Shown here: positions 5,095 through 17,959 of the stretch, one piece after another | How positions within the stretch are numbered: position 1 is the first letter of the stretch | How the letters are laid out: every line of letters starts with the position of its first letter | Source: an uncultured bacterium | GTDB lineage: Bacteria; Caldisericota; JANLFM01 | DNA: 64,000 nucleotides | Direction of reading: 5' to 3' | NCBI GenBank assembly: GCA_964614945.1 | Contig: CAZTNW010000003.1 | Span: 72,838-136,837 of the forward strand | Position numbers and translations under genes: made by a program | The notes under the pieces: model-generated | What the model was told of the DNA's origin: nothing | The model's input: the letters and a program-made list of their open reading frames with translations, nothing else | Database searches by the model: none

Positions 5095-6255
5095 CTAATT
5101 CATCTGCAGGCGACGGAAAAGCCAGGTACCAGCGGCGAAAAAAAGCACCGTCAATATGAGCAGGGCGGCTAACTCAAAAGCTATCCCGTTCAAGCCTACT
5201 CCAAGATTTAGTACTTTGTTAAGAGCCGTTACAGCATGGCTGGTCGGCAGAAAATCAAACAGTCGAATAGCACGCTCCCCGACATTGAACAGCGGCGGTG
5301 AGGGTACAGGGAAGACGGCACCGGATAAAAACAGTAGCAACAACAAAGGGAAATTGGCAATCACGGCAGCGCGTCCGACCGTACGGGAAAAACAGGCAGT
5401 GATCAATCCTGCCCCGATCGCCGCCGTGGCCGCCATGACACTGATAACGATTGCCAGGACTAAAGAACCAACATAATGATAGCCGAGCGTAATGGCCACT
5501 CCGAAGCTGAGTAATACCGATAACAAGCTAAAGCAACTGTACACCAGGCTTATCCCGCCCATCAGATCGAACGAGCTCATTCTGGTTAGCTTTAGCCGGT
5601 GCAGTGCACCGCTTTCAATCTCCCGTGAGACAGCGATAGCTACAGAAAATATAATCATAGTCAGTGCCGCTACCAGTAAACCGGGTACATAGTTATCAAA
5701 ATCCCGTCTTATAGTTGTGTCTCCAATAAATTCTTCCTGGAGGTTAAAGGGTATTTGCTGTCCTGTAGCCTCCACCACATAGTTTTCCAACTCTGAGACA
5801 ATGAATACGGCAGCTACTACGTAATATGGATGCCCTTGATCACCCATCACAACGGCAGAAGCTTCGGCTGACATTGTGCCGCCGTTATCGTGTACCCGCT
5901 GGATTTCCCGGGTATAACCGGCTGGGAAAATAACCACCGCTACGGCCTGGCGGTCCTTTAGTTTTGACTCGGCCACAGCCTGGGAGTCTAATATTTTAAC
6001 TCGAAGCACAGGTGTACCATCGGTATGTTTCAGGTCGACCAGACGACCAATCACTTCTTCACTGCAATGTTGTTCAATACCGTTTACCTGGTCGTTATTT
6101 ACCACCATTACATCCAGAGGAAGGGCAGCGCCGCTGCCCATGAATATCCAGTAGAGTATGATAAAAAGAGGCGCCAGGGATATGGACAGGATGAGATCCC
6201 ACCTGCTGCGCATCTGCTCTCTAAATGTTTTAACGCAAATCTGCCGCAGTTTCAT
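5095..6255 (-). CDS. ABC-2 family transporter permease
   Basis: 386 aa; N-terminal TM helix, large extracytoplasmic loop, C-terminal cluster of about 5 hydrophobic helices; 4-nt overlap with upstream ATPase gene. Confidence 0.8.
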   Translation of the reverse strand: MKLRQICVKTFREQMRSRWDLILSISLAPLFIILYWIFMGSGAALPLDVMVVNNDQVNGIEQHCSEEVIGRLVDLKHTDGTPVLRVKILDSQAVAESKLKDRQAVAVVIFPAGYTREIQRVHDNGGTMSAEASAVVMGDQGHPYYVVAAVFIVSELENYVVEATGQQIPFNLQEEFIGDTTIRRDFDNYVPGLLVAALTMIIFSVAIAVSREIESGALHRLKLTRMSSFDLMGGISLVYSCFSLLSVLLSFGVAITLGYHYVGSLVLAIVISVMAATAAIGAGLITACFSRTVGRAAVIANFPLLLLLFLSGAVFPVPSPPLFNVGERAIRLFDFLPTSHAVTALNKVLNLGVGLNGIAFELAALLILTVLFFAAGTWLFRRLQMN

Positions 6256-7211
6256 TCGCGTAATCTCCGACCGGTCAGGGCGATAAAGACATCTTCCAGT
6301 GTATTGCCGCGTAATCTGATATCGCCGTGTTTGATACCAATGTCGTTAATCCTCCGGGTGATAGCTGGTAGCAAATCGACAATTCCAAGTGCTCTCATTA
6401 CCAGTATATTGTTTTGCAGGGTAACATTATTAACAATGCTTTTGATTGCCCGGCAGGCGTTCTGCGACAGATCGCCGTTGTTCAAATCTATCTCCAGGAC
6501 ATCTCCCTCACCTAAATTACGCCTCAATGCATTGGGAGTATCCAGCGCCAGTAGAGCCCCGTGGTCTATAATAGCCACCCGGTCGGCCATGCGGTCTGCC
6601 TCATCCATATTATGGGTAGTCAGGATAACAGTGTGTTCTTTATTGGATTTAGCCCAATCCCGTACGTACTCGCGTACCAGCACCCGGCTTTGCGGGTCAA
6701 GCCCTGCCTCAGGTTCGTCAAGGATCAGCAACTTTGGATCATGCATCAACGCTAATGCCAGATTGAGTCGCCGCTGCATACCACCCGAAAGCGTTGCGGC
6801 TAGCTTACGGCGCTTTTCCGTAAGATGAAATATCGCCATCAGGTCTTCGGCGCGTTGCCGGCACATCTTTCGGGGCAGGTCATACATTTCCCCGATGAAG
6901 ACAAGCTGCTCCAGGCAGGTCTGTTTGGGCCAGATTATAATATTTTGCGGACATAGACCGATATCGCTTTTCATCGATTGTTCGAGCGGCTTATCATTAA
7001 AGAAAATGCTACCGCTATCCGGTTTGAGCAGGCCGCACAGCATTGAGATAGTCACTGTCTTTCCAGCACCATTGGGGCCAAGAAGAGCCAGGATTTCACC
7101 GCTTCTGATATCCAGGCTGAGTTCGTTGACTGCCGTGACGTCTCCGAAACGCTTGACCAGTCTTTCGGCTTTTAAAATACACGATACCTTGCCACTAGTT
7201 ATTGGCATCAC
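6252..7211 (-). CDS. ABC transporter ATP-binding protein
   Basis: Walker A GPNGAGKT, ABC signature LSGGMQRR, Walker B LLILDEP. Confidence 0.9.
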   Translation of the reverse strand: MMPITSGKVSCILKAERLVKRFGDVTAVNELSLDIRSGEILALLGPNGAGKTVTISMLCGLLKPDSGSIFFNDKPLEQSMKSDIGLCPQNIIIWPKQTCLEQLVFIGEMYDLPRKMCRQRAEDLMAIFHLTEKRRKLAATLSGGMQRRLNLALALMHDPKLLILDEPEAGLDPQSRVLVREYVRDWAKSNKEHTVILTTHNMDEADRMADRVAIIDHGALLALDTPNALRRNLGEGDVLEIDLNNGDLSQNACRAIKSIVNNVTLQNNILVMRALGIVDLLPAITRRINDIGIKHGDIRLRGNTLEDVFIALTGRRLRE

Positions 7212-7212
7212 T

Positions 7213-7917
7213 TCATCCCTTTAAAGCACTTTCAATAAAAGCCATAAGATTATCCAGAATACGTTCCCGGGCCATGTTTTCATCCGTAAGCTGATAATAC
7301 GTGTTTAAATGTGGCAGTAACTGTGCATCATAGACGGCAATGACCAGTGAATTTACCAAGCGAGCCATTGCCTCAAGGTCGATATCGGTGCGTATTTCAC
7401 CGCGTGATTGCGCCGCTATTAGAATGGATCTGGTCATATCCAACATTACTTGCGCTATGGGTCGTACTATTCTTTCCGTGAGAGCTGGCTCGCCTTGATA
7501 AGCGGCGCGGGTAAAATATCGAATATAACCCTGGTACTCCTTGTCCATTTCATCAGCACCCCGAAGATAGGCTCGCAAAGCATCGAACAGCGGCATTCCT
7601 GTCAAATAAGGTTTGAAATGGGTAAACGCCGCGACCATTTGCCTCGTAGTGATTTCAATGGCGAAGTCAATCAACCCCTGGCGATGGTTGAAATACTGAT
7701 AGAGGGAACCCACAGATACACCGGCTCGTCGCGCCACCTCCTTAATATTGATTAGAGCCGGGCCTTTAAGAGCGGCTTCTTCAAGGATGCTGTTAACGAT
7801 GGATTCACGCCGCGAAGGTTCAAGGCGGAAGAAAGTAGTGGTGATGATACAACTCTTTTGTAAATCGGCAAGTAAGTCTAAATTAAGAAAAGTATTTATC
7901 GATGGATATGAACTCAT
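7213..7917 (-). CDS. TetR/AcrR family transcriptional regulator
   Basis: 234 aa; N-terminal HTH INIKEVARRAGVSVGSLYQYFNHRQGL typical of TetR; directly upstream of and co-directional with the ABC exporter genes. Confidence 0.85.
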   Translation of the reverse strand: MSSYPSINTFLNLDLLADLQKSCIITTTFFRLEPSRRESIVNSILEEAALKGPALINIKEVARRAGVSVGSLYQYFNHRQGLIDFAIEITTRQMVAAFTHFKPYLTGMPLFDALRAYLRGADEMDKEYQGYIRYFTRAAYQGEPALTERIVRPIAQVMLDMTRSILIAAQSRGEIRTDIDLEAMARLVNSLVIAVYDAQLLPHLNTYYQLTDENMARERILDNLMAFIESALKG

Positions 7918-7946: not shown

Positions 7947-8028
7947 AAGTCAAATAGGCTTTCTTTCTGATAAGACTCTCAGGTCATTCATGATTTATTG
8001 GAAGCAATACTTGGAACTTTCTGGAAGT

Positions 8029-8892
8029 CTACATTTTACAAGCGACAACGGCAAACTCTGTGCTCTCCGGGTCAAACGGCGAGCCCGCAACATCCGAGTA
8101 GAAACACTCCACCTTGAATCCGCATTCCAGGAATTCCTTCTCCAGGTCTTCCGGATTGAAATACTGAAGCCAGTTGTAAACAGTCCGGGTGAGATTAGCT
8201 TCTATGATAGTATACTTGTCAAGTATTATCTTTTCCTTTTCATACTTGAAAGTATTTAAAAATCCATAGTATTTATTCGCAGACCAGAAGTTATTTAAAA
8301 GGTTGGTTTCATACATCGCAGTTTCTTTCCGCTGCTCGAATGCTTTCAGTGAATATACATCCAGAAGAACAAACCCTCCGGGTTTTAAAAAACTGTGGAA
8401 TTTAGACAACATTTTATTTCTTTGAGATGGGCTGAGCGCGCAGAAGTCACACATAATCATTAGGATTAGTTCAAACCGGTCATCGGTTTCATATTCCAGG
8501 TAGTTCTGATTGAGATACTTGATGTGTAGTTTCTCTTTACTCGCTACCTCTTGTGCGTACTCAATTGACCTTTTTGAAAAGTCTATTCCGGTTACCACTG
8601 CCTGCTTTCTAGCCAGTCTAGTTGTATATAGTCCTGGGCCGCAACCAAAATCAGCAATCTTTGTTCCAGCACCGATGTTGAATCGAGAAACTATCCAATC
8701 TACCGACTTTTCAATGAATGTTGTCTTACGTGATGAGATATCAATTTCGCCATTCAGGTGGAAGGACAACATCTGTTTTGAGGTGTGATCATCAGTCCAG
8801 AGATCACTTGCTGTATAGAACTCAAATGGTTTAGGACGCGTGTTTATTTTTTCAAGCTCTTCAAACATATGTCTCCATCTTAATACACTCAA
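8029..8892 (-). CDS. class I SAM-dependent methyltransferase
   Basis: 287 aa; motif I DFGCGPGLYT; gene is visibly AT-richer than its neighbours. Confidence 0.85.
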   Translation of the reverse strand: MSVLRWRHMFEELEKINTRPKPFEFYTASDLWTDDHTSKQMLSFHLNGEIDISSRKTTFIEKSVDWIVSRFNIGAGTKIADFGCGPGLYTTRLARKQAVVTGIDFSKRSIEYAQEVASKEKLHIKYLNQNYLEYETDDRFELILMIMCDFCALSPSQRNKMLSKFHSFLKPGGFVLLDVYSLKAFEQRKETAMYETNLLNNFWSANKYYGFLNTFKYEKEKIILDKYTIIEANLTRTVYNWLQYFNPEDLEKEFLECGFKVECFYSDVAGSPFDPESTEFAVVACKM

Positions 8893-9095
8893 TTGTGTCT
8901 GTGAAATATCTTAACAAAGTGGCTGCTACTTTCCATTCACTTAAACTGATACTTTGTCCACCAAGCGACTGTCTTTACTTACGGAAAAGCTAATCTCTGG
9001 CTGCAGTGTAATTCCACGGCGTGTTATTCCTTGTATAACTTTCGAATCACCGGATTGCACCTAATAGTGGATAAAGCCGGCATATACAAAGCCTT

Positions 9096-9399
9096 TTAGC
9101 GGCTGCTTCCAAATTCCGGGGCATTGGTGGTGATTTCGATGGCGAAGTCAAGCAAACCCTGGCGATGGTTGAAATACTGGTAGAGTAAACTCACAGATAC
9201 ACCGGCCTGTCGCGCCACTTCTTTTATATTGATCATGTCAGCCCCTTCAGGGCAGGCTTCTTCGATGATGCTGGCAACGATGGCTTCCCGCCGCGAAACC
9301 TTAAGCCAAATGAAAGTGGTGGTTATAATCCCACGCTGTTGCAGGTCAGTGAGCAAGACCGGGGTCAACAAAAGTGTTGCTTGCGGGATATGAATTCAT
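9096..9399 (-). pseudogene. truncated, frameshifted paralog of the TetR regulator 5' region (HTH domain only)
   Basis: ORF 9096..9371 translation (...IITTTFIWLKVSRREAIVASIIEE...INIKEVARQAGVSVSLLYQYFNHRQGLLDFAIEITT) aligns to residues about 20-90 of the intact TetR; ancestral ATG at 9397-9399 is out of frame and runs into a stop; homology ends near 9128. Confidence 0.7.
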
Positions 9400-9430
9400 G
9401 ATTCATATCATATGAACCTTAGGTTTATAT
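9390..9430. promoter_or_regulatory. degenerate copy of the TetR operator palindrome
   Basis: ATGAATTCATGATTCATATCATATGAACC... matches the left arm of the 7908-7946 palindrome; right arm diverged. Confidence 0.45.
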
Positions 9431-9446
9431 GTCGATTTCACTATTA

Positions 9447-10178
9447 TTATGTGTACCTTTTCCTTTTGAAATCATTGAGTCCGATTCCTGTAAATAAAAT
9501 TCCGGCCAGGGAAAATCCTAATTTTCCGATAATCACTGCTGTTGGAACGATAAAATCCGGTTCGCCGGATGAGCCTACAGGCAGGGTGAGCGGAGCAGTC
9601 CGAAAGAAAGAATCACCCAGCAGATCTAAGGCATAGGGCAAACTAGCTTTCCCCATAAGCAGCAGGAGCAGCATCAGCGCATAAAGCAACGCAGGGTGTA
9701 TCCGTCCAGCCACCATACCAATACCCGTAACAAACAGCATGGACGGCAAGAGGGTCATGATGATCGGATTAACAAAAGCGCCGAAATCGTAAAACCGAAA
9801 GGTATCTGCATAGAACGCAAAGCTGATGCCGATGGTGACACCGGAAATCAGGAGAAAACCGGTCGCTATGGCTAGACATTTAACCGCACCGTATTGCACC
9901 GGATCAATTGGGGTTGCCATGGCCAACACCCGCACCCGCTTTTCTTTTCTGGAATACAGATGGGTGATGAAAAATAGCAGCGTTATAAGGAGCAGCGGTA
10001 GAACTAAAGCCAAGAAAGCGCCATAGCTCCAACTGGAAAATGGTGCGGTATAGGAAACACCTAAAATAATTTCGCCATCCAGGAGCTTCCAGCTGTAGAA
10101 AGCTATGACCAGCAGCAAAACAAGAAAGAATTTATTAAAAATGAGCCTTCTTAGCGCATAGCGAAAGAGTTTACTCAA
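9447..10178 (-). CDS. polytopic membrane protein, probable second permease component
   Basis: 243 aa, about 6 hydrophobic segments; 8-nt overlap with upstream permease-peptidase gene. Confidence 0.6.
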   Translation of the reverse strand: MSKLFRYALRRLIFNKFFLVLLLVIAFYSWKLLDGEIILGVSYTAPFSSWSYGAFLALVLPLLLITLLFFITHLYSRKEKRVRVLAMATPIDPVQYGAVKCLAIATGFLLISGVTIGISFAFYADTFRFYDFGAFVNPIIMTLLPSMLFVTGIGMVAGRIHPALLYALMLLLLLMGKASLPYALDLLGDSFFRTAPLTLPVGSSGEPDFIVPTAVIIGKLGFSLAGILFTGIGLNDFKRKRYT

Positions 10179-12348
10179 CGGAAATCGCCTCCTTTGTCAG
10201 CCCGCAGGCATTCAGAAAATCATTGTAGGTAATGTAGGGCGGCATCTCAGTTCCGCCGTTCTCGTAAAGCTGCGCCAGGACGTTGTCCAGCTTGTCCTCG
10301 CCGCCCATCAATTCGGCTGCCTTCAGGATATTGAGCGGCATGATCTGATACATTTGTGCGCTCTCTTCCTGAGCTCTGATTCTTGCTGTGTATTTCTCGG
10401 GCAGTATATCCATATATTCCGGATGGCGGCGGTAGAAGGAACGGTTCAACGCGTCCAGACCGGCTTTCCACTGATCCAGATAGTATTTCTGGACGTAGGC
10501 CTCACCAAATTTTTCCTTCATCATGCGGTAGGTGGTGTAGACGGTGAGTCCCTCGGAGGACCACGGCTTTTCATCCAAGACGCTTGCGCTCAGCCCCCAC
10601 CATTGATGGATGATTTCATGTGCCAGCACTTCGCTGCTGGTAGCGCCCTCCAGGGAATTGGGATTGTTAAGATGAACGTCGCTGAAAAAGCTCTCTCCCA
10701 TTACACTGAAATTACCGTATGCACCCCCGCCCATTAAATAGGCGGAGGTCTGAATAATTTTGAGAGGGAGATCCTGGCCATAAGGCAGTGGGCCATAATG
10801 CGCGGTACAGTATTCCACCACTTCTGCCATCACCTGCTTTGCGTCCGCGCGCCGCATAGCCTCCTCGTGTTTTTTGCTGTAATAGAATTCAATATGCATT
10901 CCCCCCGCCTCGATGACCTCCATGACATAATCTCCCGCGAAGAGGTTGATCTGGGTTCCTTTGTCGACGGCCAGCCATGTTTTTGTCCCATCCGCGTTGT
11001 CTGAGACCAGTTTGGCGGTATTGCCGGTTGGGATGAGCGTCAGGTTGCTGGGTAGGGTAATGGTACCGATAATCGGGATGTCCTCCGCTTTGGTTCGCAT
11101 GGAGAGCCGCGGCGCAAGGGCGGTACCGCCCAGGTTCACATAGCGGTCACCGACCTCATCGCCCCAGACATCCATTCTGTTCATGGACCATTCCTGTGGG
11201 AATCCGCCGTATTCGACAGCAAGCCTAAGCTCCGGCTCTGCAGGCAGCATGATCGAGACTTCCTTATTGTTATTTGTGTCGTTGTTCAAATCGGTGAACG
11301 GGATGGCTTCGCCATTGACTGTGACCGAGCTAATTTCATATCCGGGATTAACCCGGAAACGGCATTCCTGCGGTTCGGTATTGTCATTTTCGATTTCATA
11401 GACCGCCCTTCCCTGCAGTGTGCCTTTTTTCGTGTTGAGGATTAGATCCACCTTCGTGCTTTTCCAAAACATGTTATCACTATAGATACCCTCAGTTTGC
11501 ACATAGTCCATCGGGCTATGATCGATGTATGGCTGGTAGACGTAGGCAAAGCAACCGCTGCATACCATTAGGGCAGCCAGAAGCGAGAGGCAGATTTTGC
11601 GTGCATTCAAACAAAGAGAGCTAAGAATTCCCCTGCCGTAACGCCGGATACAAAGAAGGGAGAGCAAGTAGCATCCCGACAGCACTGTCAGCCAGAACAG
11701 GCGGTTATAGGTTGCCATGCGGAGGATGCGGACATTGCTGAAATCGTCCGAATAGATGGGGATCAGGGGGTTGACCCAGCGAAGGATGAAATCATCGGAG
11801 AACCACTGGCTCATGCTAAGCAGGGCGAACACGACAAACAAGACGAAGCTGAGATCGACACGGTAGGTGACATGATATAAGGCCGCCGCCGCGAGGATGC
11901 CAAAAAACAAGCTGGGCAGCATCAGCACTAGAAAGCTTGCTATGTACAATTCTGGCACAAAAATATTCTTCATCTCCAGCATGGTATACGGAAGATAAAC
12001 CGTCATGGCCAGCAGTACAGCAACCAGCGCAGGAGCCATTAGTGCCAGTACTCTTGCGCCGTTTAAGGTCAGCGGCGACACGATGGTGTCAGTCAGGGTG
12101 ACGGTCTCGCTTCGATGTACGCGGTCTAATTCATAGAGAGTAAGCAGAGCAAAAAAAACCGCTCCCAAAAGCGCTCCTGTCATAGCAGGATTGGCAATCA
12201 GCGCGGACGCTTTTGTTAAGGTAGGGACCGGTACGTACCACGAATAACCTCCTAGAGGCGCACAGGCGGTCAGCACAAGCGCGAGCCAGGCGCTTTTTGT
12301 TCGGAAGATACGCTTCAGCTCCACAAGAAAAAAAGAGAAGAAGCTCAT
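10171..12348 (-). CDS. ABC transporter permease fused to an M1-family (gluzincin) zinc metallopeptidase domain
   Basis: 725 aa; N-terminal about 260 aa with about 6 TM helices; C-terminal domain carries HEIIHQWWG...WSSEG (HExxHxW...WxxEG M1 zinc signature); ATGA overlap with ATPase gene. Confidence 0.7.
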   Translation of the reverse strand: MSFFSFFLVELKRIFRTKSAWLALVLTACAPLGGYSWYVPVPTLTKASALIANPAMTGALLGAVFFALLTLYELDRVHRSETVTLTDTIVSPLTLNGARVLALMAPALVAVLLAMTVYLPYTMLEMKNIFVPELYIASFLVLMLPSLFFGILAAAALYHVTYRVDLSFVLFVVFALLSMSQWFSDDFILRWVNPLIPIYSDDFSNVRILRMATYNRLFWLTVLSGCYLLSLLCIRRYGRGILSSLCLNARKICLSLLAALMVCSGCFAYVYQPYIDHSPMDYVQTEGIYSDNMFWKSTKVDLILNTKKGTLQGRAVYEIENDNTEPQECRFRVNPGYEISSVTVNGEAIPFTDLNNDTNNNKEVSIMLPAEPELRLAVEYGGFPQEWSMNRMDVWGDEVGDRYVNLGGTALAPRLSMRTKAEDIPIIGTITLPSNLTLIPTGNTAKLVSDNADGTKTWLAVDKGTQINLFAGDYVMEVIEAGGMHIEFYYSKKHEEAMRRADAKQVMAEVVEYCTAHYGPLPYGQDLPLKIIQTSAYLMGGGAYGNFSVMGESFFSDVHLNNPNSLEGATSSEVLAHEIIHQWWGLSASVLDEKPWSSEGLTVYTTYRMMKEKFGEAYVQKYYLDQWKAGLDALNRSFYRRHPEYMDILPEKYTARIRAQEESAQMYQIMPLNILKAAELMGGEDKLDNVLAQLYENGGTEMPPYITYNDFLNACGLTKEAISVE

Positions 12349-13208
12349 CGTTCCGCCTCTTTTGCGATGAGGTAAAGGTATGCATCCTCCAAAGTCGGTT
12401 CCGTCGGCTGCGCGAAGTGAGGAAGATTATCCGCCAGAATCCGGCAGAAGATCCCCTGCGCGGCGTTAACGCGGGCAGTCACCTGATATTGTCTTTCCCG
12501 CGTCTCGCCGATTTGTTCCTCGAATATACCGACATGGCCGCGCGCCTTGAGGATCAATTCGGATGGCTTGCCGTCGAACAGGACAGCCCCGTGATTGATC
12601 ACGATCAGGCGGTTGCAGACCGATTGTACATCTTCAATGATATGAGTGGAGAGCAATACGGTCTTATTTTGCGCGCTGCGTGAGAATAGATTGCGGAAGC
12701 CCAGTCGTTCCTCAGGATCGAGTCCAGCCGTGGGCTCATCAAATATCAACAGTTCCGGATCGCCTAACAGCGCCTGTGCAATGCCCACGCGTTGTTTCTG
12801 GCCACCGGACAGTGTGCCGATGCGGGCTTTTCTTTTTTCATTGAGATTGGTCTCCTCGATAACTTTTAAAATGGCGGACTTGCTGTTTTTTACTCCCTTA
12901 AGGGCTGTCATATAGTCGAGGAATTGGTAAACGGTCAGCTCCTCATAAAGTCCGAAGCTCTGCGGCAGATACCCCAACCTGGATTTAAAATTCTTCTCAA
13001 CCTTCACCAGCAGCTGCCCATCCACCAGAATCCGACCGGAGGTGGGGAGCAGCTCTGCTACCAGCAGTTTCATCAGCGTGCTTTTGCCTGCGCCATTAGG
13101 GCCCAAAAGCCCGGTAAAACTGGGACTTTCCAGCGAGAGCCCCACATCTTTCAGCGCCTCCTTTCCTGTTCTATAGGTCATATTTAGATCCTGTATTTCG
13201 ATTTTCAA
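12345..13208 (-). CDS. ABC transporter ATP-binding protein
   Basis: Walker A GPNGAGKST, signature LSGGQKQR, Walker B LLIFDEP. Confidence 0.9.
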   Translation of the reverse strand: MKIEIQDLNMTYRTGKEALKDVGLSLESPSFTGLLGPNGAGKSTLMKLLVAELLPTSGRILVDGQLLVKVEKNFKSRLGYLPQSFGLYEELTVYQFLDYMTALKGVKNSKSAILKVIEETNLNEKRKARIGTLSGGQKQRVGIAQALLGDPELLIFDEPTAGLDPEERLGFRNLFSRSAQNKTVLLSTHIIEDVQSVCNRLIVINHGAVLFDGKPSELILKARGHVGIFEEQIGETRERQYQVTARVNAAQGIFCRILADNLPHFAQPTEPTLEDAYLYLIAKEAER

Positions 13209-13330
13209 TGTTTTTCACCTTCCATACGTATTGCTGCTCTTAAGACAAACCAAGTACACCTATAGCAAAGTAATTTGGAGCACAAATGAGATAAACTTGT
13301 TTTTTGTGTGAAGAGGAAAAATGGAGTCTT

Positions 13331-14833
13331 TTAGGTCAGCGCAAAGGTGAACTGTACCCCTGCTGCTGTGTTCTCGATTCTGTATTCCGCTTTATGAAGA
13401 TCCAAAATCATCTTGACGATGTAAAGCCCTAAGCCGCTTCCGCCTGTGCCGCGATTGCGTGACTGCTCTACGCGGTAGAAGGCGTTGAACAGCCTGGAAA
13501 TGGCTTCATCCGGGATATGAACACCAGTGTTCTCGATGGTAAAGCACACCACTTTATCGCATCGATGCGCTTTCACGAAAATACTGCTGCCCTCCGGCGA
13601 GTAATGTGCAGCATTGCTGATTAAGTTGCTCAACGCTCTGAGCAGCAGCATTTCATCTCCTTCAACGAACAGATTCTCCTCTATCTCAGTGGATACGGAG
13701 AGATTCTTCAGGGTGAAAAGATCCTGGTGCGCGGACAGGCAGTGGCTGGCTAGCGCACCGAGATCGAGCCGTTTCAGGCGCAGAGCAAAGTTAGGGGATT
13801 CCATGCGGGAAACAGTCAGGAGTTCCTGTACCAATCCCTCCATTCTGTCGGTGACCTTCAGTGATCGTCCCAGATATTTTCCGTGGTCGCGGTAAGCCCC
13901 CACATTGTTGATCATTCCTTCGAGCTGTCCTTTTACGACGGTGATCGGGGTTTTCAGTTCGTGAGACACCGCCGCAAAAAAGTCGAGGCGTTTGCGCTCG
14001 AGCTCCCGTTTCAGATCGATATCTGCCTGCAGAGATGCATTGGCCGTTTTCAGCTCATCCAGCGCGGCACTGAGCTTTTCCGCAAGGTTATTGAGGCTGG
14101 TGGCCAGCACACCAACCTCATCTGAGCGCTTTTCCTTACAGCGCCAGTGAAATTCCATTTCGGACATTCTCTTGGAGATCCGGCTGATATTCACAATGGG
14201 ACGGGTAACATAAAGCGAATAGAGCCACGACCCCAGAAATGACATCAGCAGAATCGCCACGACCAGCAACGGCAGGATGCGGACCAGCGCCTGCGCCGCC
14301 TGGTTAACCGGCTGCATGCTGGCTAAAACCACCAACGTATAGGGCGCGTTTGAGCCAGCAAAAGAAAATGGATAAGACTGTGATGTTGCCACAGAGACAT
14401 AAGAGGCATCGCCGAGGCTCATGTCATCGGTTGTAATCACAGGAGCGTTGAAGTAGTAATCAGAAGTATCGGTGCCTGTGCTTTGGTCAGCCCTGCCTTT
14501 TCCGTATTTCTGGATTTCTATATCTTCCGCCCAAGAAGAAGCATGTCCGGGGATATCCACCACTTTCTCCTGGGCGTCCAGAATCACGACATCCGCATTG
14601 TTTTTTACTACAAATCGGTTGAATAACTCGCCGGAATCCTCTAATTTGGTGCTTGCCAACTGCTCCGTCAATTTAATTGCATTTCTCTCCAGATCGCGGC
14701 TCAGTTCCGCAGAAAAGGTTTTGGGCATAAAGCAGGCAATGAAGATAAAAGTCAGCAAGCAGATGATAATCAGCAGCATGCTGGTGATCAGAAATACCTT
14801 TAGGGTCAGGCTATTTTTGATTCGGCGGATCAA
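13331..14833 (-). CDS. sensor histidine kinase with extracytoplasmic sensor domain between two TM helices
   Basis: 500 aa; two hydrophobic segments, H-box AVSHELKTP, C-terminal HATPase motifs (NLISNA, GTGGSGLGL). Confidence 0.9.
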   Translation of the reverse strand: MIRRIKNSLTLKVFLITSMLLIIICLLTFIFIACFMPKTFSAELSRDLERNAIKLTEQLASTKLEDSGELFNRFVVKNNADVVILDAQEKVVDIPGHASSWAEDIEIQKYGKGRADQSTGTDTSDYYFNAPVITTDDMSLGDASYVSVATSQSYPFSFAGSNAPYTLVVLASMQPVNQAAQALVRILPLLVVAILLMSFLGSWLYSLYVTRPIVNISRISKRMSEMEFHWRCKEKRSDEVGVLATSLNNLAEKLSAALDELKTANASLQADIDLKRELERKRLDFFAAVSHELKTPITVVKGQLEGMINNVGAYRDHGKYLGRSLKVTDRMEGLVQELLTVSRMESPNFALRLKRLDLGALASHCLSAHQDLFTLKNLSVSTEIEENLFVEGDEMLLLRALSNLISNAAHYSPEGSSIFVKAHRCDKVVCFTIENTGVHIPDEAISRLFNAFYRVEQSRNRGTGGSGLGLYIVKMILDLHKAEYRIENTAAGVQFTFALT

Positions 14834-15482
14834 TCCTATACCCTACCCCTCTGATTGTCTCAATGTAATCCACCCCTAATTTTTTCCGCAGGTTTTTGAT
14901 ATGCGTATCCACAACGCGCTCATCCCCGAGAAAATCATGCTTCCACAGCTTATTTAACAGCATCTGGCGGGTCAGCACTTTACCGATATGGGTCAGTAGC
15001 TCGCGTAGCAGTTCGAATTCGCGCTGGGTCAGGTCGACTGCTGTACCACAGATATAAGTCTTGTATCTATCAATATCCAGAACCAGATCCTGATAAACCA
15101 ATCGGTTTTGCTCGCCGGTCACAGAGGGTCGACGCAGGACTGCCGCAATCTTTTTCAGCAAAATTGGCATAGAGAAAGGTTTGATGATGTAGTCATCCAC
15201 TTCCAGATCGAAACCTTTCAATTGATTTTCTTCACTATCCAGCGCGGTCAGCATCACGATTGGCACGTCGGATTCCTTGCGGATCAATTCGCAGACGCCA
15301 TAGCCATCAATCTTCGGCAGCATGATGTCCAATAGCACCAAATCGAACGAACCCTTGGAAAACTGTGAAATGCCTTCCACACCATCGCCAGCCAAAACGA
15401 CCTCATATCCTCCGTCTTTCAGAAAATTCTCCAGCAGCTCCTGAATGTCAACTTCATCCTCAATCACTAAAATTTTCTTCAC
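14811..15482 (-). CDS. OmpR-family response regulator
   Basis: 223 aa; receiver domain (ILVIEDE, LLDIMLP, phospho-acceptor Asp context) and winged-helix C-terminal (GYRI); overlaps HK start. Confidence 0.9.
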   Translation of the reverse strand: MKKILVIEDEVDIQELLENFLKDGGYEVVLAGDGVEGISQFSKGSFDLVLLDIMLPKIDGYGVCELIRKESDVPIVMLTALDSEENQLKGFDLEVDDYIIKPFSMPILLKKIAAVLRRPSVTGEQNRLVYQDLVLDIDRYKTYICGTAVDLTQREFELLRELLTHIGKVLTRQMLLNKLWKHDFLGDERVVDTHIKNLRKKLGVDYIETIRGVGYRIDPPNQK

Positions 15483-15734
15483 ACTATCACCTCAGGTATT
15501 CTACACTTATCCAGTTTCAAGGCCCACCGAGGGCGTGATGTTGTAAGTAGCCAGGGCGAGCTATCGAAAGTCAGTGCTGGAGAAATACCTCTCATAACAC
15601 TGCCAGATGTCAGCAGTGAGTCCCCCCTATAAGCGAAACTCTTTCAATCACCTTCCCCCTGTGCCTCATCTAAGATAGATGGGCAATGTCCTCTTCGATA
15701 CTGCATCCTGCGGTTAGCAACCGCGAATTCTTCT

Positions 15735-16085
15735 TCTCCCGGGTCGAATGTCGAGTCAGCAACATCGGAGTAGAAACTTGCTACTTGGAATCTGCCCCTC
15801 AAAAGCTCCTTTCTAGCTCCTCCAGGCTAAAATACTGCAACCAGTTAACGGTATGTGTGTAACTAGCTTCAATGATCATATTTATCAAGTACTACTCTTT
15901 CTTCTTCGTACTTGAACGTATCAAGAAACCTATAGTACTTTTGCGGGTGGGAGAAGTCCAGTCAACCTAGACTACGCACTCGACCGATCTATCAACAAAT
16001 GCAGCATTACGCGATGAGATCTCGATCTTTCCATTCAGGTGGCAAGAGAGCATCTGCCTGGAAGTATGCTCATCCGTCCATAGTG
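15735..16085 (-). pseudogene. decayed relic of the SAM methyltransferase gene, with a large internal deletion
   Basis: DNA aligns by eye to 8046-8285 and 8690-8795 of the intact gene (e.g. CATCGGAGTAGAAAC vs CATCCGAGTAGAAAC; TTTCCATTCAGGTGGCAAGAGAGCATCTG vs TTCGCCATTCAGGTGGAAGGACAACATCTG); no ORF >=60 aa in the track across 15483-16189. Confidence 0.65.
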
Positions 16086-16189
16086 GCCCTTTTTCCTTTC
16101 TGCTGTCCCATCACAATGTTGTGCTGAGCATAAGCGCTGCGGCTGACTCAGGTCGAAGCGGTTTCACCTCATTCCTGTTCTTGCCCTGC

Positions 16190-16921
16190 TCACTCGCTGC
16201 CCTCATCTCCTTCATGCGGTAAGGTTGAGTCTAAAGGCATTTCGCTGGCTCTCAATTTAGACTCATCGTCGGCGGAGAAGATTCCGCACGACCGCTCGAG
16301 CATCTCCAGGCGCTTCCTTAGTTCTTCCTGCTCTTTCATGAGATAACTCATAGCTTCGGCTACAGGGTCGGGGAGCCTTCCATGCTCAAGGTCCATAAAG
16401 TGCTTGCGTTTATCTTCTACGATTCTTCCTGGAACTCCGACCACTGTGGCTGCAGGGGGGACCGATTTCAGGACCACAGAACAGGCTCCGATTTTAGCAT
16501 CGTCTCCAATGGTAACGGCACCCAGGACAACTGCCCCGGCGCCAATGACTACATTGTTGCCAATCGTGGGGTGGCGTTTTCCTTTTCTCAAGCTTGTTCC
16601 TCCCAGGACAGCGCCCTGATAAATCAGGACATCATCTCCAATCTCGGTAGTCTCCCCGATAACTACGCCAGCTCCGTGGTCGATGAAGAAACGCCTCCCG
16701 ATTTTTGCCCCGGGATGAATTTCAATGCCAGTAAAAAAGCGAGCTAAATGAGAGATAAAGCGCGCCAGAAAAAACAACTTCTTCTGCCAGAGAAAGTGGG
16801 CCAGACGATGGAACCAGAGGGCGTGAACTCCCGGATAACACATTAAAATCTCCAGGGTGCCTCTGGCAGCAGGGTCTCTGGCGAATACTGTCTGGATGTC
16901 TTCTTTCAGAGTTTTAAGCAT
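16190..16921 (-). CDS. cysE: serine O-acetyltransferase with C-terminal extension
   Basis: 243 aa; left-handed beta-helix hexapeptide repeats ([39 protein letters not shown]). Confidence 0.85.
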
Positions 16922-17107
16922 ATATGTTCTCCGTGTGGGAATTCCTCTCTCTTAACCAATCTGAGCTTCAAAGGTCTTGAAAAAGCCAAGTGGAGAGATA
17001 GCGCTCACCTGTATCAGGAAGGATAGCCGTAATAAGTTTCCCCGTGTTTTCTGGCCTTCGGGCTACCTCTAAGGCCGCCCAGACCGCAGCTCCTGAAGAT
17101 ATTCCAG

Positions 17108-17959
17108 CTAATATTCCTTCTTCTCTGGCCAACCTCCTGGCCATGAGTCCGGCGTCGTCGTTGGCGACCCTGATAACTTCATCGAGCAGACCACCTCCAG
17201 CACCTCGGGAATAAAACCGGCCCCAATTCCCTGAATCCTGTGTGTGCCTGGCTTCCCTCCGGAGAGGACGGGGGAACTTTCAGGCTCGACAGCGATGGCT
17301 TTGAATCCCTTTTTCCTCTCTTTCAAAACCTCCGCCGCTCCAGTAATCGTACCTCCAGTTCCCACCCCCGCCACTAAAATATCCACCTTTCCCTCGGTAT
17401 CCCTCCATATCTCCTCAGCAGTAGTCAACCTGTGAATTTCAGGGTTGGCAGGATTCTTAAACTGCTGAAGCAGGAGAGAGTCAGGATTCTCGGCCGCCAG
17501 TTGCTCTGCTTTCCTCACTGCTCCAGATATCCCTTCCAGTCCGGGAGTCAGAACCAGCTCCGCTCCGAACATCGAAAGGAGCTGTCTTCTCTCGAGGGAC
17601 ATCGTGTCAGGCATGGTCAGGATGAGCCTGTATCCTCTGGCAGCGCAGACAGAAGCCAGGGCGATACCTGTATTCCCGCTCGTGGGTTCGACAAGAACCG
17701 TATTTTTATTGATCAACCCTCTTTCTTCGGCATCGGCGATCATGGAAACCCCAATCCTGTCTTTGCCGCTGCCAGTAGGATTGAATGCCTCCAACTTGGC
17801 CACAACAGTTGCCCGCAGCCCCTCTGTTATCCTGTTTAACCTGACGAGCGGAGTGTTCCCTATCAATTCCGCCACATCTCTGGCAATACCCCTGGCTAAC
17901 CTCGGTATGCTCAGGGCTTTATAATGAAGGATGTCCAATTCTTTAGCTTTCTCTCTCAT
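17108..17959 (-). CDS. cysK: cysteine synthase (CysK/CysM, PLP-dependent), interrupted by an apparent frameshift; homologous 3' end continues in another frame to 16968
   Basis: [27 protein letters not shown] motifs; after IPEVLE the ORF frame gives a non-homologous tail, while another frame reads [46 protein letters not shown]... to a stop at 16968-16970. Confidence 0.8.

Follow-up and report, generated by a model that had tools for sequence, protein, structure and literature searches.

The subject of this analysis is a cassette of five genes in a 64-kb stretch of DNA from an uncultured bacterium (64,000 nucleotides of contig CAZTNW010000003.1, hereafter the window). The cassette lies between positions 9447 and 15482 and consists of five co-directional open reading frames (ORFs) on the minus strand, all of which are real genes judging by the ORF listing and its translations. 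In order of transcription they encode an OmpR/PhoB-type response regulator, a sensor histidine kinase, an ATP-binding cassette (ABC) ATPase, a permease fused to an M1-type zinc peptidase domain, and a second permease subunit (Mem2). Together they constitute a two-component-regulated, self-contained ABC-2 (type V) exporter cassette.

Genes and domain architecture

The regulator and the kinase were recognized by their Pfam domains (Table 1); the regulator scored below every NCBIfam equivalog cut-off. The transmembrane (TM) segments of the kinase were placed by hydropathy at residues 14-32 and 182-200, on either side of its extracytoplasmic loop, and the kinase is syntenic with the pump. The translated ATPase has intact Walker A (GPNGAGKS), signature (LSGGQ), Walker B (LIFDE) and H-loop (STH) motifs, and its N-terminus, MKIEIQDLNMTY, agrees with those of its orthologs. 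Its top NCBIfam model was GldA (206.2 bits), followed by DrrA; as both of these partner ABC-2 permeases, the ATPase is assigned by sequence to the class that serves such permeases. Identity with the GldA/GldF/GldG gliding-motility transporter was rejected, the GldA cut-off being 402.6 bits. The ATPase stop codon and the start codon of the fusion gene overlap in the tetranucleotide ATGA (12345-12348), and the end of the fusion gene overlaps the start of the Mem2 gene by 8 nt.

The C-terminal part of the fusion protein carries the zinc motif AHEIIHQWWG...WSSEG (nucleotides 10549-10623), which supplies H577, E578, H581 and E599 in the exact HExxH-x18-E spacing of family M1. Searched singly, the window protein reached 22.1 bits against Pfam Peptidase_M1 (PF01433), under the gathering score of 27.7, but 24 of 27 family members matched the same model at E<=0.05 (best E 3.6e-10). 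The best sequence-profile match of the family profile was LTA4H (E 1.7e-12), in two stretches: profile positions 296-442 aligned with residues 25-178 of the LTA4H beta domain, and positions 570-713 with residues 296-435 of its catalytic domain. An LTA4H model was also the only NCBIfam match of the fusion protein. An AlphaFold2 (AF2) model of the single fusion chain, built on the family alignment, was confident (predicted local distance difference test score 89, predicted template modeling score 0.84), and Foldseek searches with it returned ERAP1, ERAP2, LTA4H and IRAP at E values of 1.7e-13 to 3e-12 and probability 1.0, over ~460-500 alignment columns. Target coverage was best for the two-domain M1 protein of Deinococcus radiodurans (PDB 6a8z, TMt 0.50), which fits a catalytic unit that lacks the large C-terminal lid domain.

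All 27 aligned members have E552 and E578, 24 of them keep H577, H581, E599 and Y667, and HExxH is retained in 117 of 120 listed homologs. E552 comes after a strand (residues 547-550, FSVM) and G551, 25 residues before H577; the counterpart distance in LTA4H, from the Glu of its GAMEN motif to the first zinc-binding His, is 24 residues. The catalytic Tyr of M1 enzymes is expected ~88-90 residues after the first His. Y667 stands 90 residues after H577, and in the profile alignment it falls one column off an LTA4H Tyr that we take to be the catalytic Tyr383. The exopeptidase motif GxMEN(W) lies on an edge strand, and its Glu binds the amino terminus of the substrate (PMC10343166). In the fusion protein this motif reads M-x-E instead of M-E-N, with E552 as the putative counterpart of the GAMEN Glu. 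By both sequence and model, the domain is a genuine M1-type metallopeptidase with what is predicted to be a complete catalytic set.

The Pfam ABC2_membrane model matched neither the fusion protein nor any of 27 homologs, and NCBIfam likewise had no match for the membrane domain; its ABC-2 classification therefore comes from the fold search. In the AF2 model an N-terminal interfacial helix is followed by six core helices and by an additional helix (residues 252-270) ahead of the M1 domain. The fold-match figures of the membrane part were highest for NosY (15.6), Cdr1 (15.3), ABCG5 (15.2) and Rv1217c (14.7), followed by ABCG2 (14.0), ABCA4 (13.0) and CcmB (11.9); PmtD (11.5), Wzm (10.0) and FtsX (8.6 or below) gave lower figures. 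The modeled structure, with the interfacial helix and six-helix core by which the class is recognized, thus confirmed an ABC-2/type V fold.

With the N-terminus inside the cell, as in ABC-2 permeases, seven helices would deliver the M1 domain to the outside by way of TM7. The distribution of charges agrees with this arrangement: across 27 homologs, the N-terminus, loop 4 and loop 6 contain on average 3.3, 1.7 and 5.1 Lys+Arg residues, and loops 1, 3 and 5 and the linker after TM7 are acidic, with 0.3-1.0. The M1 domain is accordingly placed by prediction outside the cell, on the helix count and the positive-inside rule. Mem2 has six hydrophobic segments, a sub-threshold match to ABC2_membrane_3 (19.5 bits against 31.6, E 6e-4) and no matching NCBIfam family. 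In a profile-profile comparison by hhalign it aligned with the fused membrane domain (probability 81%, E 1.3e-5). Because it is a distant paralog of that domain, Mem2 probably forms the other half of a heterodimeric permease.

An earlier note, made from the letters of this DNA alone, had proposed an ABC-2-type membrane domain fused to an M1 domain with the signature HEIIHQWWG and WSSEG, translational coupling of its gene to that of an ABC ATPase, a second membrane protein downstream, and an OmpR-type regulator with a looped kinase upstream. All of these proposals are borne out: the fusion by profile, model and fold matches to both classes, the signature by its exact spacing and by the M1 profile and fold matches, the coupling by the overlapping codons, the second membrane protein by its paralogy, and the regulatory pair by the Pfam domains and the two TM segments around the ~150-residue loop. 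Among the checks that the note had suggested were hidden Markov model searches, topology prediction and structure prediction. Topology prediction put the peptidase outside, and modeling of the single fusion chain gave a confident M1 fold. The model searches were mixed, with Peptidase_M1 supported at the level of family and profile, the single sequence below the gathering score and ABC2_membrane unmatched. The metallopeptidase fold is present, the zinc ligands of the window protein are intact, and no characterized family with a known substrate was found that accounts for the architecture.

Conservation and regulation of the cassette

The homolog search returned >500 matches, nearly all of ~725 aa and full length; clustering at 50% gave 241 representatives at E<=1e-30 among 1.84 billion proteins. 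The same fusion protein was also found, identical, on several contigs. A locus scan with one genome per species recovered ~39 family loci, from Lachnospiraceae, Oscillospiraceae, Paenibacillus, Anaerosphaera, Peptococcaceae, Anaerocolumna and one Desulfobacterales metagenome-assembled genome. At ~28 of these ~39 loci the order regulator-kinase-ATPase-fusion-permease is as in the window, and most of the others end at contig boundaries. The regulators and kinases scored as specific orthologs (270-480 bits), the regulator ortholog (270-340 bits) adjoining the pump genes in ~28 loci; at one locus (L024) the two-component genes have moved downstream, onto the opposite strand. Across ~35 loci, among ORFs of at least 100 aa, no further gene family recurs beside the cassette and no biosynthetic genes do so. 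The lack of a recurrent neighbor marks the cassette as a stand-alone unit that does not belong to a biosynthetic cluster. Its five genes are conserved together among Firmicutes from the gut and from soil, including many gut Lachnospiraceae and Oscillospiraceae as well as Paenibacillus.

The DNA upstream of the ATPase gene was aligned from ~29 loci and gave the consensus cTCCAcA-aCACAtA-cTCCA-CTCCAtA (~27 loci), four half-sites with 11-bp phasing. This pattern has a single match in the whole window, upstream of the ATPase gene (Table 1). In 26 of 32 loci, including the one with displaced two-component genes, the match falls between -86 and -96 relative to the ATPase start; only two further matches occurred in 1 Mb scanned, and the three loci without a cognate two-component system had none. 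Because a putative -10-like block directly follows the repeats, aligning with a conserved TGgTATcCT, the repeats would occupy the -35 position, which is the usual arrangement for OmpR/PhoB-type activators. The predicted site provides good support, from comparison across loci, for direct control of the pump operon by the regulator. Together with the retained five-gene order, this site upholds the signal regulation that the earlier note had claimed. No half-site match was found upstream of the regulator and kinase genes in the window, and the usual half-sites were not found, with up to 2 mismatches, in a zinc-less clade (described below) and some divergent loci. An Rfam search of positions 8000-17000 found no riboswitch or leader, and a generic promoter and terminator scan gave counts equal to those of shuffled sequences.

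Three groups of variants stand apart from the typical family members. In the first, P0015 (from a Logan assembly), P0017 (Anaerotignum) and P0019 (Wukongibacter), the motif reads TEIIQ in place of HEIIH, no third zinc ligand is left and a His stands at the Tyr position. The five-gene cassette is intact around P0017 and P0019 (L085 6001-8220 and L084 6001-8214, respectively), and within the trio the dead M1 domain is 86-88% conserved, compared with 85-87% for the membrane domain. The second group is a divergent Clostridium clade (~26% identity), in which the ATPase-fusion-permease trio is without its own two-component system and adjoins, in three different gene orders, a small-kinase two-component system and an ABC system with a ~860-aa FtsX/MacB_PCD permease. 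One fusion gene of this clade, on C. estertheticum plasmid pCF016-270 (L082 6992-9223), is split by a single in-frame stop, which leaves a membrane part of 266 aa and an M1 part of 475 aa; plasmid pCF005-A has an unbroken copy. The third group comprises permease-M1 proteins of typically ~1200 aa (stop-to-stop ORFs of ~1140-1560 aa) in Proteobacteria, Acidobacteriota, Bacteroidota, Gemmatimonadota and Myxococcota. In these, ~12 TM segments and two ABC2_membrane halves come before a Peptidase_M1 domain at the C-terminal end, and their genes usually follow directly on a GldA-like ATPase gene.

Table 1. Positions of the cassette features in the window, with the loci of two variant groups
Feature	Location	Strand	Details
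OmpR/PhoB-type response regulator	14811..15482	-	223 aa; Pfam Response_reg 1.4e-26, Trans_reg_C 8.1e-25
Sensor histidine kinase	13331..14833	-	500 aa; TM1, ~150-aa extracytoplasmic loop, TM2, HAMP, HisKA, HATPase_c (Pfam)
Predicted regulator-binding site	13276..13313	-	half-sites CTTCACA / AAACAAG / TCTCATT / CTCCAAA, 11-bp-phased
Putative extended -10 element	13259..13267	-	TGCTATAGG; just 3' of the repeat array
ABC ATPase	12345..13208	-	287 aa, TTG start; Pfam ABC_tran 1.3e-33
Permease-M1 fusion	10171..12348	-	725 aa
Fusion residues 1-270, membrane part	11539..12348	-	N-terminal amphipathic helix, six-helix ABC-2 core, extra TM7
Fusion residues 293-491, M1 N-terminal beta-sandwich	10876..11472	-	predicted extracytoplasmic; LTA4H profile match, all-beta AF2 model
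Fusion residues 492-725, M1 thermolysin-like catalytic domain	10174..10875	-	without large C-terminal lid domain
E552 codon	10693-10695	-	
H577/E578/H581 codons	10606-10620	-	
E599 codon	10552-10554	-	
Tyr667 codon	10348-10350	-	
Second permease subunit (Mem2)	9447..10178	-	243 aa, six predicted TM; directly 3' of the fusion gene in every cassette
Clostridium loci (C. ragsdalei, C. tetanomorphum, C. estertheticum plasmid)	L033 11259-16272; L034 1734-6736; L082 4364-6026 and 10116-13375		
Long permease-M1 fusion loci	L043, L045, L048, L055-L057, L060, L063, L066, L067, L072, L073		

In the window the cassette is flanked by remnants of a paralogous methyltransferase-TetR pair. Upstream, at 15700-16100 on the minus strand, lies a decayed methyltransferase pseudogene whose nucleotides are 73-77% identical to those of its intact counterpart at 8029-8892; on the downstream side, at 9096-9371 (minus strand), is a truncated 91-aa TetR with 73% amino acid identity to the intact TetR at 7213-7917. 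This arrangement suggests that a methyltransferase-TetR pair was duplicated and that the five genes came to lie between the copies by insertion or rearrangement. An unrelated second ABC-2 system follows directly downstream (5095-7917, minus strand) and comprises that TetR, a 319-aa ABC ATPase and an ABC-2-like permease (386 aa) whose first loop is large. At 17108-17959 (minus strand), the ORF listing contains a CysK-like ORF with an atypical C-terminal end, possibly the result of a frameshift or truncation. At two other loci (L002, 5719-7010; L016, 4997-6302), inserted chloramphenicol-acetyltransferase-like and alpha/beta-hydrolase genes separate the kinase gene from the regulator site and the ATPase gene; L004 has a gap of the same 1.7 kb, and near-identical DNA upstream of its ATPase gene.

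A PADLOC search yielded only generic ATPase matches, with none for the fusion or Mem2, and gave no support to a phage-defense system. A plasmid search returned three distant copies only, on large non-mobilizable C. estertheticum plasmids, and such sparse and distant copies rule out a typical plasmid-borne resistance gene.

A possible role in peptide defense

Our tentative reading, to which we give somewhat less than even weight, is that the cassette mediates an inducible defense against a membrane-active or envelope-targeting peptide (a bacteriocin or a host antimicrobial peptide). The absence of conserved neighbors and biosynthetic genes, together with a gene layout like that of the Cpr-type operons discussed below, counts for a resistance module. 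The FtsX/MacB_PCD-type systems beside the Clostridium trios hint at peptide defense, and the presence of PmtD, a peptide-exporting ABC-2 permease, among the fold matches was likewise counted for it.

In such a defense, the kinase would sense an extracytoplasmic signal through its loop and phosphorylate the regulator. Two regulator dimers would then bind the four CTCCAYA-like half-sites over the -35 position and activate the operon of ATPase, permease-M1 fusion and second permease. The pump would be built from a homodimer of nucleotide-binding domains (NBDs) and a heterodimeric membrane part, as its fold class and the paralogy of its permeases suggest, and TM7 of one permease half would position the lid-less M1 zinc aminopeptidase over the transporter, on the outer side of the membrane. 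The pump may expel the peptide from the membrane, as proposed for Cpr/LanFEG transporters, and the tethered peptidase could capture the expelled peptide and trim its N-terminus so that it no longer rebinds. A single polypeptide would thereby unite two activities for which the nsr operon has an ABC transporter and a membrane-anchored protease as separate proteins. A bolder version of this idea, which we consider unlikely though worth stating, is an ‘extract-and-trim’ machine in which the ABC-2 pump lifts a membrane-inserted peptide into the tethered lid-less M1 domain, or in which the ATPase cycle gates the peptidase; the permease-M1 coupling, which recurs in the ~1200-aa proteins of Gram-negative phyla, would then represent a widespread, functionally new branch of ABC systems and a new class of peptide-resistance determinants in gut Clostridia.

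Several observations weigh against a peptide-defense role. The ATPase scored 148.2 bits against the lantibiotic-protection ATPase model TIGR03740, the cut-off of which is 309.75, and neither permease matched a LanE/LanG-type permease model, assuming that NCBIfam holds such models; sequence-level membership of LanFEG/CprABC was rejected on both counts. The kinase loop had no Pfam match and nothing significant among PDB sequences, the suggestive Clostridium neighborhoods come from one genus, and full-text literature searches found no experimental study of either window-type or ~1200-aa fusions. With GAMEN altered to M-x-E, the enzyme could act as an exo- or as an endopeptidase. Since M1 enzymes work as exopeptidases from the N-terminus, they may be ineffective against the many lantibiotics whose N-termini are modified or locked in a ring. 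The zinc-less proteins also speak against the proposal: as their M1 domain is kept as well as their membrane domain, hydrolysis is dispensable at least there, and in that lineage, if not elsewhere, the domain has a role for which it need not cleave. Two other explanations therefore stay in play, one of peptide maturation and the other of mechanotransmission.

According to the first of these, the cassette exports and matures a peptide of its own (a pheromone, a PSM-like peptide or an unmodified bacteriocin), with the M1 domain trimming the N-terminus and the kinase sensing the mature product in an autoinduction loop. An aminopeptidase is better suited to N-terminal trimming than to wholesale destruction, and a loop kinase with a dedicated promoter follows the logic of peptide autoinduction, NisRK being grouped with the Cpr-type systems (PMC5786555). 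However, no conserved neighbor gene was found in ~35 loci (ORFs of at least 100 aa were screened, and very small precursors are not excluded), the window has no regulator site upstream of the regulator and kinase genes and thus no obvious positive feedback, and the zinc-less subclade keeps the cassette. We regard maturation as rather unlikely. In the mechanotransmission model no peptide is transported; the cytoplasmic ATP cycle moves the external M1 domain and so switches its binding or cleavage of a surface or envelope substrate. FtsEX controls cell-wall hydrolases in this way, and a similar action on its periplasmic partner has been suggested for NosDFY, an ABC-2 complex. The covalent tether between the M1 domain and TM7 suits this model, as do the recurrence of permease-M1 coupling in the ~1200-aa Gram-negative proteins and the dead yet conserved M1 domain in an intact cassette, which fits a binding or gating role. 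Set against these points, there is no candidate surface substrate; the stem peptides of peptidoglycan do not have a free alpha-amino terminus of the kind that M1 enzymes require; and tight signal-dependent control suggests a stress response over housekeeping. This model is judged quite improbable, and the zinc-less subclade is a built-in natural test of a catalytic versus a binding role of the domain.

The sub-gathering Pfam score of the window protein (22.1 against 27.7) and the C. estertheticum plasmid copy that is split by an in-frame stop into 266 + 475 aa might also be taken to mean that the fusion is an artifact of frameshift or misassembly, or that the peptidase motif arose by chance. 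Such an artifact is excluded for practical purposes, because >100 full-length homologs of ~725 aa come from independent assemblies; the identical protein on several contigs, the confident single-chain model, the strong M1 fold and profile matches and the retention of HExxH (117/120) are equally contrary to it.

Comparison with known systems

ABC modules under two-component control are the main route of Firmicutes to resistance against bacteriocins and host antimicrobial peptides, and the literature on such modules is dominated by the Bce and Cpr/LanFEG types. Bce systems pair a two-component system with an ABC transporter for the detoxification of peptide antibiotics in Firmicutes, with an FtsX-type permease (BceB) and a kinase without a sensor loop. 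Membership of BceAB-BceRS was rejected, as the cassette has neither an FtsX-type permease nor a loop-less kinase. The peptidase-containing ABC transporters (PCATs) are the known fusion of a peptidase to an ABC exporter; they have an N-terminal cytoplasmic C39 cysteine peptidase and a different exporter fold, and cleave the leader before export. Here, in contrast, the peptidase is C-terminal, of the M1 zinc type and predicted to be external, and the fold is ABC-2; with no N-terminal C39 peptidase, PCAT membership was also rejected.

The closest structural relatives of the peptidase domain are soluble. The M1 protein 6a8z of D. radiodurans, a two-domain metallopeptidase cited in PMC10343166 (refs 83-84), and LTA4H share with the fusion a beta-sandwich followed by a thermolysin-like domain with HExxH-x18-E, and in common with it have no large lid; the fusion differs in being membrane-tethered, by prediction on the outer face, and in the change of GAMEN to M-x-E, and identity is 13-15%. 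The ~1200-aa permease-M1 proteins join two transmembrane domains (TMDs) and M1 in one chain (TMD-TMD-M1), whereas the window family has TMD-M1 and then a separate TMD gene; they have no consistently adjacent two-component system, and their M1 domains are 24-31% identical to those of the window family. The earlier note had been unable to tie the architecture to a characterized system. This holds insofar as none with a known substrate was found, but the fusion itself already has a name in NCBI annotation, ‘ABC transporter permease/M1 family aminopeptidase’, borne by a Tissierella protein that shares a 90% cluster with a homolog of 54% identity.

The earlier note had also likened the locus to peptide-antibiotic sensing and detoxification modules with a peptidase-bearing permease in place of an FtsX-type one. 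The peptidase-bearing permease stands, but the closest layout is that of the Cpr/LanFEG operons and not of Bce/FtsX. CprABC-KR of C. difficile, NisFEG-RK, LctFEG-LcrSR and NsrFE1E2G-XRK of S. mutans are laid out as the present cassette is: each has an OmpR-type regulator, a kinase whose loop is extracellular, a single NBD gene and genes for two different ABC-2 permeases of six TM segments. These operons are stand-alone and inducible, often with an accessory lipoprotein or membrane-anchored protease (PMC5786555). The permease described here adds to this layout TM7 and a 455-aa M1 zinc aminopeptidase.

The nsr operon of S. agalactiae, with the NSR protease, NsrFP and NsrRK, is the precedent for a pump plus a protease, and NSR inactivates nisin (PMC4698656, PMC5583591). 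It resembles the cassette in combining a two-component system, an ABC transporter and a membrane-anchored extracellular protease. NSR, however, is a serine protease of family S41 that is made as a separate protein and cuts the last six residues from the C-terminus of nisin, whereas the cassette has its M1 zinc (amino)peptidase in one chain with the permease. In addition, NsrFP belongs to the BceAB/FtsX type and NsrK is a small intramembrane-sensing kinase, compared with an ABC-2 pump and a large-loop kinase. Should the cassette prove to be a resistance determinant, it would add coupled extraction and trimming to the known mechanisms, with a bearing on bacteriocin therapeutics and competition in the gut, and would offer a tractable model with a clear promoter, regulator site and catalytic site, and an entry to the far larger set of Gram-negative permease-M1 fusions. 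Compared with the systems above, what is new is a Cpr-type layout in which a zinc aminopeptidase, predicted to be extracellular, is covalently attached to an ABC-2 pump under two-component control.

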